DNA of 64,000 nt from an uncultured Phycisphaerales bacterium. GTDB lineage: Bacteria > Planctomycetota > Phycisphaerae > Tepidisphaerales > Tepidisphaeraceae. A program made the translations under genes and the position numbers. The stretch is taken from the NCBI GenBank assembly GCA_963844715.1, contig CAWJPJ010000008.1:640001-704000 (forward strand), read 5' to 3'. The notes beneath the pieces were generated by a model, which saw only the letters and a program-made list of their open reading frames with translations, was not told the DNA's origin and did not search any database. The first letter of the stretch is position 1; each line of letters begins with the position of its first letter. This document shows positions 11,736 through 57,807 of the stretch, one piece after another.

Positions 11736-11743
11736 ACTTTTTT

Positions 11744-11854
11744 CCCTCTCCCCATGTACTCATGGGGAGAGGGAAGGGTGAGGGGCAATTTTTCGAAGGT
11801 CGGAAGACGGCCCCTCACCCTAACCCTCTCCCCGGAGTACCGGGGCGAGGGGAC
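11744..11854. repeat. BoxC-like palindrome inverted doublet (family A)
   Basis: CCCTCTCCCCATGTACTCATGGGGAGAGGGAAGGGTGAGGGG, a short spacer, then CCCCTCACCCTAACCCTCTCCCCGGAGTACCGGGGCGAGGGGAC; lies between convergent murA and mqnD. Confidence 0.9.
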
Positions 11855-35645: not shown

Positions 35646-36968
35646 CTACTCCCCAGGCGTGTTCAGCGAAAACCGCGTCCACGTCCCCGTCCCCAGGGTC
35701 CCGGTCATGCTCACGGCATTCGAATTCAGCACCGTGTATGTCCCGTGATCGGTCCGGCCGCCGTCGGCTTTCAGACTCCACATCGAATTGGCGAAGTCGA
35801 CGTGCCCAGCTTCGGATTGCGTCTTCCCATTGGTCGTTGCCGCGACGCAATACCGTCCGTCCGGATCAATCGACCAGACGAGCAGGGTGTTTCCCTGCGC
35901 GGAAGGAATATTGATTTGCCAGGTTCCCACGATCGCCGCATCGACCGTGGTCGGCTCATTCATCGAAGCGGAGAGGCGCGTCCAGATCGCCGTTCCCAGC
36001 GTGCTCGTGATCTGCACGTTATTCGAGTCCTGAATGGTGTACGTCCCCTGATCGGTGCGCCCGGCGTCGCTGCGAAGCTGCCAGTTATTTTTTCCGAACA
36101 TGGCGTGCCCGGTTTCGCCCGGCACCGTGGACGGCCCCGTGATGTTGAGCGCGTAATCGCCATCCGAGTGGATCAGCCAGTTGAAGACCACGTCGCCCGT
36201 GGGCGTGGGGAAGCGCGTCCGCCAGGTATCGACCATCACTGGATCAACCGTCGGTGCGTTCGCGACCGGCGTGAAGCCGCCGGGTTGAGTCGTCGCATTA
36301 TTTTGCCCAATCACCGGCGCGGGGATCGGCGCCGGCGGGGGGGTCGGCGCGGGAGTCGGGGTCGGAGCGGGGGACGGGGCCGGCGTCACCACCGCCGAAT
36401 TCTGCCGGCCGATCATCCTATAGACCGAAAATATCGCCACCGCGCCCACCGCAATGATCACCGCCGCGGCGATCCAAATTACCGCCGTCGCCTTGGCCGG
36501 AGAAGTCGCGATCGTCGGTGCCGGCCGCGGGCCCGGAGCAGGCCCAGGCGGTTCCTCCGCCGGTCCGTTCTGCAAAAGCGTTTTCGTTTTCGCCGCCAGA
36601 GTCTGCAAATGATTCTCCAGCGGCGTCGTGATCGCATCCAGCCAATGCACCGACCCCAGGTAATAATCCAGCGACTTATTCGGCAGGATATTCTCCACGC
36701 GAAACGGAATCACCAATCGGCCCGCCTCGAACGCATGCTGCAACTCGCGCTTCACCTGCGGTGATTCGTTCGCATGACTCGAAAAAACCAAAATAAAAAG
36801 CTTCGCCTCCTCGATGGCGTTCACCAGCGCCTCGCTCCAATCCGCCCCCGGCTGAATATCCCGCGGCGCAATCCAACACCGAATCCCCGCGGACTCGAGC
36901 GTCGCGCAAGCCGCGTCCGCGATCGGCTTGTCCTTCGTCGAATAACTGATGAAAACGTCGTGAGCCAT
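35646..36968 (-). CDS. TIR-domain single-pass membrane protein with duplicated extracytoplasmic beta domain
   Basis: HDVFISYS, CWIAPRDI and SPQVKREL (TIR_2); TM segment VIWIAAAVIIAVGAVAIFSVY; two ~90-aa repeats each ending GTxxWTR. Confidence 0.88.
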   Translation of the reverse strand: MAHDVFISYSTKDKPIADAACATLESAGIRCWIAPRDIQPGADWSEALVNAIEEAKLFILVFSSHANESPQVKRELQHAFEAGRLVIPFRVENILPNKSLDYYLGSVHWLDAITTPLENHLQTLAAKTKTLLQNGPAEEPPGPAPGPRPAPTIATSPAKATAVIWIAAAVIIAVGAVAIFSVYRMIGRQNSAVVTPAPSPAPTPTPAPTPPPAPIPAPVIGQNNATTQPGGFTPVANAPTVDPVMVDTWRTRFPTPTGDVVFNWLIHSDGDYALNITGPSTVPGETGHAMFGKNNWQLRSDAGRTDQGTYTIQDSNNVQITSTLGTAIWTRLSASMNEPTTVDAAIVGTWQINIPSAQGNTLLVWSIDPDGRYCVAATTNGKTQSEAGHVDFANSMWSLKADGGRTDHGTYTVLNSNAVSMTGTLGTGTWTRFSLNTPGE

Positions 36969-37023
36969 TGAGCGAGGCAGAATACCAGCCCCCTAGGTCC
37001 GGAGCCAAAACATTTGTCTTACT

Positions 37024-37134
37024 CCTCTGCCCATGTACTCATGGGGAGAGGCTGGGTGAGGGGCATTCTTCGAATTTCAAAATGCGCCCTCACCCGCGCC
37101 CGCCGTGCCGGAACTAAAGGCACGGGCGAGGGGG
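37024..37134. repeat. BoxC-like palindrome inverted doublet (family A, degenerate)
   Basis: CCTCTGCCCATGTACTCATGGGGAGAGGCTGGGTGAGGGG...GCCCTCACCC...GGGCGAGGGGG; overlaps the mutM 3' end. Confidence 0.8.
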
Positions 37135-37943
37135 AAAACTGCACCGCGCCTGGCATTTCGGACAAAAGTGCGTCGACCGCCCCCCAAGCACGATCCTCGT
37201 AATCGCCGTCCCGCAAACGGAACATGGCTTGCCTGCGCGATCATAGACGCGATGGAGTTTTTGGAAGTCGCCGGAGTCGCCGTTGGCATCCCGATAATCG
37301 CGCAGCGTGCTTCCGCGGTGTCGTAGCGCCCGCCGCAGGACGACTTTGATCGCCCGAGTCAGCGCGGCGATCTGCGCAGCGCTCAATCGATCCGCCCGAA
37401 TCTTCGGATGAATCTTCGCGGCGAAAAGGGATTCATCGGCATAAATATTCCCCAGCCCCGCGATCAAAGATTGATCGAGCAGCGCCGTCTTAATCGCGCG
37501 CTTGGTTTTGGACAGGCGCTTAGCCAGTTCCCCCGCCCGAACCGTCAGCGGTTCAGGCCCCAGCCCCGTTTCCTCCGATTCAGTTTTCCCCAGCCAGAAA
37601 ATTCCCCCGAACCGGCGCGGGTCCGCGAAGCGAATCTCATCCTTCCCAAAGCTCAGCAGAAGATGCGTGTGAGAAATCCGAGGCGACCCAGGCGATTCAA
37701 CCGTCAACCGCCCCGTCATCCCCAGATGAATGAAAAATCGATTCCCATCATCAAGCAAAAAAACAATCTTCTTCCCCCGCCGGGCGATAGACGAGATAAC
37801 TCTCCCCGCGAGAAGCCTGCCAATATCCGTCCCGACAGGCTCAACAATATCCGCCGCAAAAGCTCCACTCCCACCACCCGCCTCCCCGCAATCCGCGGCG
37901 AAAGCGTCCGCACCACAGTCTCCACTTCCGGCAATTCAGGCAT
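37114..37943 (-). CDS. mutM: Formamidopyrimidine-DNA glycosylase (frameshifts ~37850-37760)
   Basis: MPELPEVETV, HLGMTG, DPRRFG, AGLGNIYADESLF, and a CSVC...FCPKCQ zinc finger. Confidence 0.95.
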
Positions 37944-37985
37944 AAGAAACTTTCTTGTCCCCTCTCCCTGTACTCAGGGAGAGGG

Positions 37986-38363
37986 TTAGGGTGAGGGTCG
38001 AACCTGAGTCAGCTCTCGAATAATAGTCCTAAGCACCGCGTCAGGATCCTTCATCACGTCATCATTCGGCACGCGCAAGACTCGCAAGCCGAGCTGCTCC
38101 AATTGGCGCGTTCGTTCCGCGTCTTTGACTAAGCCCGATTCGTCGCCATGTTGTCCACCGTCCAACTCAATTACAAGATTTTCCTTAAGGCAAACAAAGT
38201 CCACGACGTAACCTGCGATCGGATGCTGCCGGCGAAAACGAAAGCTTGCCATTTGGCCGCTCCGCAGAAGCGCCCACAACTTCCGCTCTGCCTCCGTGGA
38301 ATCTCTCCGAAGGCGCTTGGCTATTCCAGTCATTCGCGGACGGTGATCATGCCGGCCTAACAT
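37986..38363 (-). CDS. DUF559 (Vsr-like, PD-(D/E)xK-related) endonuclease
   Basis: C-terminal 125 aa of ORF 37986..39176: AKRLRRDSTEAERKLWALLR, FRRQHPIAGYVVDF, LVIELDGGQH, DAERTRQL...GLRVLR. The stop TAA lies inside the left repeat. Confidence 0.92.
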   Translation of the reverse strand: MLGRHDHRPRMTGIAKRLRRDSTEAERKLWALLRSGQMASFRFRRQHPIAGYVVDFVCLKENLVIELDGGQHGDESGLVKDAERTRQLEQLGLRVLRVPNDDVMKDPDAVLRTIIRELTQVRPSP

Positions 38364-38370
38364 GTAATAT

Positions 38371-38398
38371 AGAATCCCGCGCGGTTGGAACCCGTCAA
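38371..38398 (-). promoter_or_regulatory. Possible promoter for DUF559 inside the cassette
   Basis: Minus strand TTGACG-N16-GATTCT-N7-ATG; no SD visible. Confidence 0.35.
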
Positions 38399-38599
38399 GA
38401 ACCCTCACCCCTGCCCTCTCCCTGGGTACAGGGAGAGGGAGTAAAATCCCGCAAATCTGCAACTTTCGCCCCTCCGTCGGCGTCCATTGGATTGTTGGAC
38501 CGGCGCGGCAATAATACTCACGGATCGGCGATACGCCCTTTGCTTCCCTCTCCCCGTCCTCCGCTAGTTTCCCCAGGACGGGCAATGGGTTCCTCTTAT

Positions 38600-38639
38600 C
38601 CCCTCTCCATGTACTCAGGGAGAGGGTTAGGGTGAGGGT
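38600..38639. repeat. BoxC-like palindrome (family A)
   Basis: CCCCTCTCCATGTACTCAGGGAGAGGGTTAGGGTGAGGGT, nearly identical to 37959-37998. Confidence 0.9.
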
Positions 38640-38712
38640 CGAGCGCAAGTGCGCCCTCGGTTTCCCCAGGACCAGTGACGGTCGACGGCTTCGTTGTGCA
38701 GGAGTATAGAAA

Positions 38713-42990: not shown

Positions 42991-43030
42991 CCTCCTCCCC
43001 CGGTAATCCGGGGGAGGAAAGAGGAAGGGG
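42991..43030. repeat. BoxC-like palindrome (family A, degenerate)
   Basis: CCTCCTCCCCCGGTAATCCGGGGGAGGAAAGAGGAAGGGG. Confidence 0.65.
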
Positions 43031-45680: not shown

Positions 45681-45783
45681 GACGGACGCCATTCGCCTGC
45701 GCGCCCATTTTTACCCCCGCCCCCGGCACTCCGGGGGAGGGCAGGGGAGGGGGCCCGCGTGCGATTAAAGGACGATCCGTAAA
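45681..45783. repeat. ~100-bp family A unit filling an intergenic gap
   Basis: Hairpin CCCCGCCCCCGGCACTCCGGGGGAGGGCAGGGGAGGGGG plus tail GCGATTAAAGGACGATCCGTAAA, matching 56085-56186. Confidence 0.75.
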
Positions 45784-52513: not shown

Positions 52514-52585
52514 TTTATCCCCTCTCCCCATGTAATCATCCGATCGCCAGACGCGGTTTGCTCTGGAGGCTGTTGGGAACGCTCG

Positions 52586-56084: not shown

Positions 56085-56183
56085 TACGGATTGTGGTTGA
56101 TATCCGCGCACATTTTCCCCTCCCTCGGTACTCCGGGGGAGGGTTAGGGAGGGGGCGGGGGCGCGATTTAAGTACGATCCGTA
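56085..56183. mobile_element. 99-bp family A unit with TACGGAT/ATCCGTA ends, inserted in a heptamer array
   Basis: 7-bp terminal inverted repeat, central BoxC-like hairpin, AAA on both sides; removal restores AAACAAG-AAACTAG-AAACTAG-AAACCAG. Confidence 0.6.
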
Positions 56184-56214: not shown

Positions 56215-57523
56215 TCAATATTCCCCCACCTCAATCCGATCCACGAACGCCCGCCCAAACGCCAGATTCGCGACCCACCCAATCGCCATCGTCTTCATGA
56301 TCTGGTTCCGCACGAAGAGTCCCGCCGCCGTCTTTGGCGCAAACGCCGGCCCGAACCGCGCCGCCGCCTTCTGCTTCTTGGCCACGAACGGCCCGAAAAT
56401 TTCCTGATACCGCGCAAACGCCCGCGAATAGTCGCCGTTTCCGCGGTCTAACTGCGATTCTCGCTGAATCCCGCCGCACTCGATTTCCCCCTCCTCCGGT
56501 ACCCCCGGGGAGGGTTGGGGAGGGGGCCGGCTCGGGGGCGTGCGCGTCACCCATGCACGGTTGCCGTAATTCCCCGGCCAGAATATACGCTGCGATCATC
56601 GCCAGCGCCGACCCCTGCCCGCCCAGCAGTGAGACGCACGACGCCGCATCCCCGACCAGCGCCACCCGCCCATTCGCCCACGACTCCCCCGGCGGACTCA
56701 TCCGTATCTGACTGACCCGATCAAAATAAAGTTCGTCGCTCGCGTCCAGCGCCTCCAGAATCCGCGGGCACTCCCATCCGCTCTTTCCAAATCGCGAATG
56801 CAAAATCGCCTTCTGCCCGCTGGCGTCCTGTTCCCCAACCCGCTCCATCTCATCGTCGGCGAACACAAACAAAAACATCGTCCGATCATCGCGCAGAGTA
56901 AACCGCCCGACCATCTGTCCCACCTCCGTATAAGTCACATAAACCAGTTCATCCCGCGGCCGGTACCCCGCAACCTCGAACGCCGCGACCTTGTATCCCA
57001 TGTACTTTTCAAACTGCCTTTCCGCCCCAAACACCAATTCCCGCACGCGCGAGTGCAGCCCATCCGCCCCGATGACCAGATCAAATTCGCCGCGTTCCCC
57101 GCGCCTCGAACGTCACCCGCACCCCGTTTTCGTTCTGTTCGATTTGATTGATGCTGCTGCCGAAGATCGTTTCGACCTTCCCGTCGATCGTGCCAAAGAT
57201 CAAAGCCGCCAGGTCCCCGCGCCGATGCTGACGTAACGCCCGCGAATCGCCCGCGTGAAGGCATCCACCGCAAACCCCGAAATCCGCCGCCCCGTCTCGT
57301 CCACCGCCCACAATTCCTTCACGATATAACCGAGCCGAAGAATTTCCGCCCCAAGCCCCATCCGCTGGGCGATATCGAATCCAGCCCCCCAAAAGTCGAT
57401 GACATACCCGCCGGTTCGCAAAGCCGGCGACCGCTCGACAATCGTCGGCTCAAATCCATACCGCAAAAGCCAATAAGCCAGCGTCGGCCCGGCAATCCCC
57501 GCGCCGGAAATTAAGATCTTCAT
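56215..57523 (-). CDS. FAD-dependent monooxygenase (frameshifted, and interrupted by a repeat insertion; possibly a pseudogene)
   Basis: ILISGAGIAGPTLAYWL, GGYVIDF, GADGLHS region, GRVALVGDAA, GQGSALA, AFARYQE. Confidence 0.85.
56449..56569. mobile_element. Family A unit inserted in the monooxygenase CDS between TAA direct repeats
   Basis: TAA at 56449-51 and 56567-69; deleting 118 bp restores AYILAGEL-DRGNGDYSRAFARY. Confidence 0.7.
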
Positions 57524-57762
57524 CGTGATTCAACCCTCTCCCGCGAACCCCGCGAAGACGGCCGTGCTCGCGCCGCCGGACCCTCTGACACTCGATCCAA
57601 CTTATCCGATTGAACCACCTTCTGACATCCAAACAAAAACCGCCCAATCCCCGGGCCGCCACCCCCGCGCCGCGAGCCCTCCCTCCCTCCCCGCGAAGCC
57701 GGCGGTGCTCGCACCGCCGGACCTCTCGAGTTCCACCCTCCACCGCGCCCCGCCTTAGTTAT

Positions 57763-57807
57763 CCCCTCTCCCCATGTACTCATGGGGAGAGGGCGAGGGT
57801 GAGGGGC
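57763..57807. repeat. BoxC-like palindrome (family A)
   Basis: CCCCTCTCCCCATGTACTCATGGGGAGAGGGCGAGGGTGAGGGGC, almost identical to 11744-11786. Confidence 0.9.

Follow-up and report, generated by a model that had tools for sequence, protein, structure and literature searches.

A nuclease gene nested between two inverted repeats

The DNA analysed here (the window) is a stretch of 64 kb, to which all position numbers refer unless another contig is named, from the 4.55-Mb, 8-contig, 85% complete genome of an uncultured Phycisphaerales bacterium. In the spacer between mutM and moxR it holds a gene for a Vsr-like nuclease of the DUF559 family, 125 aa long, and this gene and the two inverted copies of a short hairpin-forming repeat that enclose it make up a cassette of about 490 bp (37955-38445). 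An intact DUF559 gene between inverted repeats, with its stop codon in the left copy, had been noticed in a preliminary description of the sequence and was confirmed: the protein matches Pfam DUF559 (PF04480) along positions 4-108 of the 109-position profile with 128.2 bits, the cut-off being 20.6, and the two arms of the cassette (37960-37998 and 38401-38439) are 39 nt each, 90% complementary and 402 nt apart. The left copy consists of a T-rich lead (TTGT), a hairpin CCCCTCTCCC-TGTACTCA-GGGAGAGGG, the triplet TTA and a tail, GGGTGAGGG, that faces the gene; the TAA stop of the DUF559 gene is the complement of this TTA (37986-37988), between blocks 2 and 3 of the repeat. The G-rich tails of both cassette copies point inward, at the DUF559 gene. 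A third copy lies beyond the right one in the same spacer and is flanked by a perfect 13-nt direct repeat, GTTTCCCCAGGAC, at 38567-38579 and 38660-38672.

Among the open reading frames (ORFs) of the cassette there is no recombinase gene, nor does the cassette hold a known class of transposase, its matches being limited to the DUF559 and MTES_1575 nuclease models. A possible promoter had been proposed next to the right copy, but no sigma-70-like site was found on either strand between 37850 and 38750, and no intrinsic terminator was detected there either. Four soil-metagenome runs, all from one study, contain portions of the window; no RNA dataset is among the runs listed. Metagenome contigs identical to the window span the junctions from mutM to the left repeat, from the left repeat to the gene, and from the gene through the right repeat to the third copy; these contigs may come from the same sample as the window's assembly. 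One contig junction that skips 37983-38397 was not counted, as its shorter side is just 26 letters long and most likely belongs to another doublet.

The encoded protein also matches PDB 3HRL, an 'endonuclease-like protein' (E 2.9e-22), and, weakly, PDB 3R3P, a 'mobile intron protein' (E 0.009) which we take to be I-Bth0305I. Residues E26, W30, D55, E66, D68, G69, H72, D81, R84, R97 and N100 are intact and conserved in at least 90% of 75 homologues. D55, E66, D68, H72 and D81 are present in 73-75 of the 75 aligned sequences, and by analogy the conserved acidic and histidine residues have putative catalytic roles in the nuclease core. The NCBIfam model of the E. coli protein YcjD (PRK09767) was matched with E 1.5e-26 and 92.8 bits; as this is below the equivalog cut-off of 218, the window protein is not a YcjD equivalog. 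YcjD itself was placed with Vsr in a survey of 2005, as given in the portion of that paper available to us (PMC1189080). The PADLOC models yielded just weak matches, to the nuclease domains of DpdF and Hhe and to a 'homing endonuclease' model (E 5.5e-4).

Identity of the repeat

The BoxC sequences of E. coli were later described as PIT elements and then as the G/C-rich intrastrand triplex motif TMECO (Holder et al. 2015, PMC4666352, which cites the earlier BoxC/PIT work of Bachellier and of Hoyne & Maher). In the accessible text of that paper the TMECO consensus is given as CCCTCNCCC N3-6 GGGNGAGGG N3 GGGNGAGGG, with 3610 copies across 262 proteobacterial genomes, and a TMECO oligonucleotide is reported to fold as a triplex in vitro. 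The motifs were tied there to polymerase stops and local genome instability, TM loci being rearranged more than control sites. The paper states, twice, that the motif was seen near no transposase, integrase or other mobility function, and the words 'endonuclease', 'DUF559' and 'ycjD' do not occur in the main text of the paper (PMC4666352).

That the window repeat resembles BoxC had been suggested, and comparison with the published consensus bears this out. Three blocks of the window repeat are identical to CCCTCNCCC, GGGNGAGGG and GGGNGAGGG, and its second loop is TTA as in the published 'type A'. Copies with CCCTCGCCCC/GGGGAGAGGG have a G.A mismatch in the stem in both cases, both repeats are dispersed, and the window copies are intergenic like the published motif. 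The inverted doublets of E. coli join a TTA-type to a CCG-type copy, and in each of the three cassettes of the genome studied here (see below) a TTA copy likewise has a CAG, CTG or CCG copy as its partner. The differences lie in the first loop, which is 8 nt long with a GTAC centre here and 3-6 nt in the published motif; in the host, a planctomycete metagenome-assembled genome (MAG) outside the Proteobacteria listed for TMECO; and in the nuclease gene nested between the copies here, whereas no mobility gene near the motif was found by Holder et al. (2015). Because the first loop measures 8 nt, the strict published pattern has no copy in the genome; when relaxed to a first loop of 3-10 and a second loop of 2-4, it has 42, against none in a reversed control. 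Judged by its sequence, the window repeat is best placed in the published BoxC/PIT/TMECO class, as a loop-length variant of it. Its fold was computed as a Watson-Crick hairpin, the triplex being known from the published in vitro work only.

Repeat copies and DUF559 genes in the genome

Copies of the repeat were located with an nhmmer model that was seeded with ten window copies and iterated twice (cut-off E<=0.01). The model found 180 copies genome-wide and none in the reversed genome; 11 of them fall in the window, against 2.5 expected at the genome average (approximately 4-fold enriched). Thirteen repeat positions had been listed in the preliminary description; 11 match the model, while of the other two the one at 37086 is a variant form into which a module has been inserted and the one at 52519 comprises just the 5' half of the hairpin. 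All 13 sites, when inspected, fall between long ORFs. The 21-mer of the tail gave six window matches at no more than three mismatches, against none in 100 shuffles. The earlier impression that the stems vary in a compensatory way while the GTAC loop is largely kept was supported qualitatively: a stem of at least 8 pairs is formed by 158 of the 180 copies, with 70 distinct 5' arms and a central GTAC in 130 of the 158, and the stem bases that border the loop differ between copies in complementary sets (ATG/CAT, CGG/CCG, CTG/CAG, GTG/CAC). Sorting the 180 copies into subfamilies per cassette was tried and given up, 51 copies remaining unparsed and the classes not being clean.

Three DUF559 genes are present in the genome, and all three have a copy in plus orientation on their left and one in minus orientation on their right, each within 100 nt. 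They account for every +/- pair spaced 100-1000 nt apart, with gaps of 375, 404 and 406 nt. Gene-less +/- doublets, 26-27 in number, are arranged tail-to-tail like the cassettes around a partly palindromic spacer of 22-24 nt, and gene-less solo copies and doublets together amount to roughly 140. The geometry of doublet and cassette is alike, and the DUF559 gene therefore occupies exactly the position of the doublet's spacer. The three DUF559 paralogues are diverged and are not recent duplicates, copy b being far from copies a and c; copy c has two frameshifts, which may be assembly errors and similar in kind to the frameshift in mutM (see below).

None of the five Y1 genes of the genome (Y1_Tnp, PF01797; IS200/RAYT-type) is flanked by the repeat. 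Two of the five, at C6:612548-612889 and C8:63110-63451, have identical scores and 226-aa frames and therefore probably represent a single insertion sequence in two copies; the C8 copy has a BoxC doublet at a distance of 1.3 kb but none directly beside it.

Some BoxC copies, such as the one at 37086-37135, contain within their stem or loop a second module of about 35 nt (...CGTGCCGAAACTAGCGGAAGGGGACAGG...-like). The same module was found elsewhere in the genome (C6:541642, C6:1081601, C6:110430, C6:1095692 and C7:1277835), which suggests a nested insertion or a second repeat family that targets BoxC copies. Two arrays of four copies each, all in the same orientation (C4:77719-78350 and C4:84501-84860, spacing 45-234 nt), differ from the usual solo copies and inverted doublets.

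Flanking repeats at DUF559 genes of other bacteria

A scan with the window's DUF559 protein, taking one genome per species, returned 79 loci from many phyla, of which 76 could be tested for flanking repeats; the best match was in a Tepidisphaeraceae MAG (67% identity). For each locus, the 200 nt to the left of the gene were aligned to the reverse complement of the 200 nt to its right, with a threshold of 20, shuffled flanks reaching at most 14.5. A score of at least 20 was obtained at 43 of the 76 loci, and these again belong to many phyla. At the loci with full flanks the enrichment of palindromes around DUF559 genes that had been anticipated was clear, 42 of 71 reaching the threshold at the gene as against 0 of 564 at eight positions shifted by 600-1200 nt. 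The same repeat architecture recurs in Alpha- and Gammaproteobacteria, Deinococcus, Binatia and others, with a C/T-rich stem, a loop, a G/A-rich stem, a spacer (at times containing a small second hairpin) and a G-rich tail that faces the gene.

In a set of 30 relatives, 15 stand-alone DUF559 loci were identified, and an inverted repeat pair was found at 14 of them. The tails of the pair point inward at 13 of the 15 (8 by the model and 5 by alignment; one right copy has no tail). One locus has a pair with the tails outward, and one truncated gene has a single copy. Large proteins of these relatives that carry a DUF559-like domain at their C-terminus were near a repeat in 0 of 12 cases. Taken together, these comparisons show that the gene-in-repeat pairing is, at the level of sequence, specific and ancient, being conserved across phyla.

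In E. coli, BoxC copies had been proposed to lie near ycjD at fabI, and a BoxC copy does adjoin this gene. TMECO copy no. 9 in Table 1 of Holder et al. (2015) is located ca. 170 nt downstream of ycjD, the ycjD stop codon falls within the loop of a degenerate BoxC hairpin, and the 5' side of the gene has a different palindrome; the ycjD locus is a decayed form of the cassette arrangement. Between TMECO no. 9 and ycjD there is also a duplicate of about 50 nt of the ycjD 3' end (L088 1405-1625; MG1655 1351204-1351424), which looks like the scar of an older cassette rearrangement.

The cassette as an insertion

In the relatives, mutM and moxR are divergent neighbours, and the spacer between their start codons was measured and searched for BoxC copies (E<=1). 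It is 769 bp long and contains the repeat in the genome studied here. It measures 89 and 143 bp in two genomes of the same genus (G001 and G002), 111-227 bp in seven family-level genomes, and 510 and 1288 bp in G009 and G018, where it holds unrelated inserts; none of these spacers has a BoxC copy. An alignment puts the conserved spacer sequence after the cassette. The short, repeat-free spacers of the relatives and this alignment thus indicate that both repeats, the gene and the third copy were added in this lineage. The empty mutM-moxR site that had been proposed as a test was therefore found, and it contains no doublet.

At three other window sites the boundaries of the insertion could not be placed, the spacers of G001 and G002 being too diverged or holding other inserts. 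Where the window has the doublet of 11740-11853, G002 has a run of GAATGAC-like heptamers (L129, G002:C31, ~35720-35870) and G001 has a 510-bp insert with small ORFs; the spacer in which this doublet lies has received insertions repeatedly.

Four of the 15 stand-alone-type DUF559 genes of the relatives lie in frame inside host genes, namely a DUF1156 methylase gene (L101, G021), murF (L117, G017), a UDG/DUF4130 gene (L118, G006) and hsdM (L109, G013). In these cases the domains of the host protein lie on either side of the cassette, the repeats are translated as Pro/Gly-rich linkers, and the copies are read through. MurF is normally essential; the murF of the genome studied here is uninterrupted, without the insert of ~170 residues. 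Repeats without a gene were also seen in coding sequence, as repeated PSPxGRGxGEG stretches in the DUF1156 gene of L101.

Candidate target-site duplications were rejected. The window cassette is flanked by similar 9-11-mers (GAAACTTTCTT / GCAACTTTCGC), the third copy by the 13-mer given above, and the murF insertion of G017 by similar 10-12-mers, but a set of 42 diverse cassettes has no more flanking direct repeats than controls. Around the copies of this genome, direct repeats of at least 8 nt numbered 17 against 4.6 expected, at no fixed position.

Co-occurrence of repeats and DUF559

Stand-alone DUF559 genes were called at E<1e-20 in the 30 relatives, and repeats were counted there by a loose pattern. 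All 10 genomes with DUF559 have at least 4 pattern hits (range 4-435, median 53.5), as against 7 of the 20 without it (6-69 hits); the other 13 of these 20 have 0-1 hits, and the median of the group is 0 (Fisher p 0.001; leaving out G004, one of the 20 and flagged as unpublished, makes no difference). An even draw of 150 further genomes of the phylum, all at least 90% complete, was then scored as repeat-rich at 8 or more hits net of a control. Seven of the 18 genomes with DUF559 were repeat-rich, compared to 13 of the 132 without (odds ratio 5.8, p 0.003). Four genomes (G159, G091, G087 and G075) in which the backwards-pattern control was as high as the signal were set aside. These counts are to be read with the properties of the material in mind: MAGs often lose repeat-flanked genes, and the loose pattern misses variants and catches poly-C/G noise.

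In E. coli, ycjD was found in 3378 of 5426 complete genomes. According to the accessible part of a paper of 2026 (PMC12817139), the spacer between fabI and sapF contains ycjD in phylogroups A, B1 and C and has eefRABCD in its place in B2 and others. Five strains were counted by the strict published pattern. MG1655 and 55989, in which DUF559 is present, have 23 and 29 copies; IHE3034, CFT073 and Sakai, in which it is absent, have 1, 2 and 11. Repeat abundance thus goes with the presence of DUF559 in the relatives, in the phylum sample and in E. coli, as had been expected, although the tracking is imperfect.

Comparison with known systems

REP/REPIN sequences are dispersed hairpin repeats paired with RAYT (TnpA-REP) transposases of the HUH Y1 type, and RAYT genes are described as single-copy and vertically inherited. 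The present system is similar in that a dispersed hairpin repeat, occurring as solos and inverted doublets, is associated with a low-copy enzyme gene flanked by inverted copies. It differs in that the enzyme is a PD-(D/E)xK hydrolase and not an HUH tyrosine enzyme, so that no covalent strand transfer is expected; in that several diverged DUF559 copies are found per genome; and in that the cassette is insertion-polymorphic, also inside coding sequence. Like insertion sequences with their miniature inverted-repeat transposable elements (MITEs), it has a single small gene enclosed by terminal inverted repeats and numerous short derivatives that have these ends but lack the gene, some genomes retaining the derivatives alone. 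It encodes, however, no transposase of the DDE, serine, tyrosine or HUH class, and target-site duplications are not consistently present.

The likeness to Vsr-like (EDxHD) homing endonucleases (PDB 3R3P) consists of a related nuclease domain and a small selfish gene inserted into other sequences, whereas the cassette has no intron or intein, has structured inverted-repeat ends, and is accompanied by many gene-less copies of these ends. Vsr is the very-short-patch repair endonuclease, encoded by a syntenic gene paired with Dcm. Vsr and E. coli YcjD (PRK09767) belong to the same fold family as the window protein, and ycjD too abuts BoxC copies; the cassette gene, however, is not syntenic as the Vsr gene is, nor is its product, as noted above, an equivalog of YcjD.

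Proposed mechanism and alternative explanations

Since the pairing recurs across many bacterial phyla, DUF559 is likely to be the missing partner enzyme of the repeats. The explanation that we favour, at a probability of roughly 0.5, is that the DUF559 nuclease recognises BoxC/triplex repeats and cuts at them, and thereby spreads or maintains both the repeats and its own cassette. The protein would bind the repeat in its folded (hairpin or triplex) or palindromic form and would nick or cut it there, and host replication or repair would turn the cut into a new copy of the element. The roughly 140 gene-less solos and doublets would then be non-autonomous derivatives moved in trans, as MITEs are, and could outlive the gene; repeats persisting after gene loss would account for repeat-rich genomes without DUF559. 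A broader version, which we advance more tentatively and at somewhat less than even odds, is that DUF559 nucleases are the mobilising enzymes of BoxC/PIT/triplex repeats throughout Bacteria. The cassette would in that case be a pan-bacterial, transposase-independent selfish replicator with hairpin/triplex ends and a Vsr-like hydrolase as its sole gene, one that sheds MITE-like doublets and lives in frame inside essential genes such as murF.

Several observations weigh against mobilisation of the repeats by DUF559, the RAYT-like role that had been proposed for it in the preliminary description. A hydrolytic PD-(D/E)xK nuclease cannot join strands alone, and a copying step by the host must therefore be assumed. 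Direct repeats of at least 7 nt flank 9.5% of 42 cassettes and 9.1% of controls, with no consistent target-site duplication, and at 33 of the 76 diverse loci no inverted repeat in the flanks reaches the score of 20. Stand-alone DUF559 is missing from 13 of the 20 repeat-rich genomes of the phylum sample, and 5 of the 18 planctomycete genomes with DUF559 have no pattern hits, though the pattern misses variants. The relative G018 (95% complete, 4 contigs) has 69 hits with uniform, fresh-looking doublets and no DUF559 by either family or protein search, and E. coli Sakai keeps its 11 copies without the gene. Related genomes are not independent, and the p-values given above therefore overstate the association. 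Finally, a literature search found no report of activity, binding or movement for any DUF559 protein.

The main rival explanation makes DUF559 a free-standing endonuclease of the homing type and a parasite of the repeats. Gene-less doublets, or sites flanked by repeats, would be the targets of its cutting, and repair from a filled copy, with the repeats serving as homology, would then place the gene in them, while the repeats themselves spread otherwise. The position of the gene at the doublet's spacer would be expected from such a parasite, and the similarity to PDB 3R3P and to the PADLOC 'homing endonuclease' model (E 0.009 and 5.5e-4) is weak but real. Repeat-rich genomes without DUF559 are many, and repeats alone occur in coding sequence (the DUF1156 gene of L101), which is also in its favour. 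We nevertheless regard it as less likely, as the one clean empty site has no doublet, repeats and gene being missing together, and the same is true of the genome's own murF. An active homing gene should moreover fill its targets, whereas 27 doublets are unfilled and 3 are filled. The rise in repeat number with DUF559 is not predicted for a pure parasite either, though a parasite would persist longer where its targets abound. Distinctly less probable is a host-serving, structure-specific repair nuclease that resolves the hairpins or triplexes of the repeats and is located beside them by regulation or linkage, the repeats being moved by, for example, a Y1/IS200-like transposase. A housekeeping gene would be syntenic, whereas the DUF559 gene is an insertion absent from the congeners' site, has three diverged copies, is nested in frame in host genes of relatives, and has a patchy distribution even among E. 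coli genomes (3378/5426). A repair role would suit the Vsr-like fold family (Vsr acts on T:G mismatches) as well as the polymerase stops and local instability that Holder et al. (2015) associated with the motifs in the accessible text (PMC4666352); the genome does have five Y1_Tnp genes, but 0 of the 5 adjoin a repeat.

We give very little credence to the possibility that the cassette is an invertible (phase-variable) segment, or that the repeats do no more than insulate a nuclease gene of the defence type by their RNA or DNA structure. No recombinase gene is present in the cassette, and flipping a whole gene with its own start and stop alters nothing obvious; the accessible part of Milman 2023 lists, for the term 'DUF559 domain-containing protein', a 14-fold enrichment in the predicted targets of programmed inversion, an enrichment that we ascribe to the inverted repeats themselves. 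A TIR-domain gene 1 kb away would be in keeping with defence, but the PADLOC matches of the nuclease are weak and confined to the nuclease domains of larger proteins, and the ~140 occurrences of the repeats without any gene argue against insulation and inversion alike. Coincidence, or a generic hot spot, the repeats being signs of unstable spacers in which any gene that arrives would be caught, has a negligible probability and is close to being refuted already: DUF559 is the sole cargo of inverted pairs 100-1000 nt apart (3/3), 0 of 564 shifted control positions reach the score, 0 of 12 other genes with DUF559-like domains are flanked, and the geometry is fixed, with tails inward at 13 of the 14 flanked loci in relatives. 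This outweighs, in our opinion, the greater rearrangement of TM loci than of controls stated in the accessible text of Holder et al. (2015, PMC4666352) and the ~4-fold enrichment of copies in the window.

BoxC/PIT/triplex motifs have been on record in E. coli since the 1990s, and in hundreds of genomes, but neither an origin nor an enzyme or a function has been assigned to them. The large DUF559 family, E. coli YcjD included, has a solved structure and no assigned function. If their pairing is functional, the puzzles of the repeats and of the nuclease family would be explained together, and a second, mechanistically distinct replicator made of a repeat and its cognate enzyme would exist besides REPIN-RAYT. 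No published link between a BoxC-type repeat and DUF559 was found in the literature search, most subscription journals lying outside its reach. The question can be tested in E. coli K-12; among the five natural strains sampled, those that have ycjD and those that lack it differ in their number of repeats. The in-frame copies in murF and hsdM raise the further question of how proteins tolerate a nuclease insert of ~170 residues.

Features of the window

The features of the cassette and the remaining repeat copies and neighbouring genes are collected in Table 1. When folded as single-stranded DNA, the doublet of 11740-11853 is predicted to form three hairpins, with the tails base-paired to each other.

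Table 1. Repeat copies and genes in and around the DUF559 cassette
Feature	Position	Strand	Basis or remark
DUF559 (Vsr-like PD-(D/E)xK) nuclease gene, 125 aa, intact frame	37986-38363	-	ORF list and Pfam PF04480
Left BoxC/TM copy	37955-37998	+	nhmmer E 3.8e-12; DNA hairpin -13.3 kcal/mol, z -3.8
Right BoxC/TM copy, inverted, second loop CAG	38402-38445	-	nhmmer E 1.6e-10
Third copy in mutM-moxR spacer, truncated doublet	38596-38639	+	repeat model; absent from relatives' spacer
Doublet-like pair between TIR gene and mutM	37020-37135		+ copy 37020-37064; inverted partner ~37086-37135 with inserted module
Gene-less doublet: + copy, 24-nt spacer, - copy	11740-11853		repeat model; fold -46.7 kcal/mol, z -9.4
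Solo copy, divergent variant	42992-43017	+	nhmmer E 8.9e-4
Solo copy	45710-45753	+	repeat model
Solo copy	56113-56155	+	tail motif and repeat model
Solo copy	56484-56526	+	repeat model
Solo copy	57761-57807	+	tail motif and repeat model
mutM (Fpg), two frames	37114-37943	-	
TIR_2 gene, 440 aa	35646-36968	-	N-terminal TIR_2, E 2e-25

The frame of mutM is broken near 37854, about 30 codons into the gene. At the very point of the frame change, after 37854, one more G is present in a soil-metagenome contig (run X1, depth 2.4). An error of assembly or variation between strains is therefore the probable cause of the frameshift, rather than death of the gene, and the genome appears to carry single-base indels. 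The 440-aa protein with the TIR_2 domain is encoded one gene away from the cassette and gave weak PADLOC matches to TIR-defence models, and a BoxC doublet sits between its gene and mutM.

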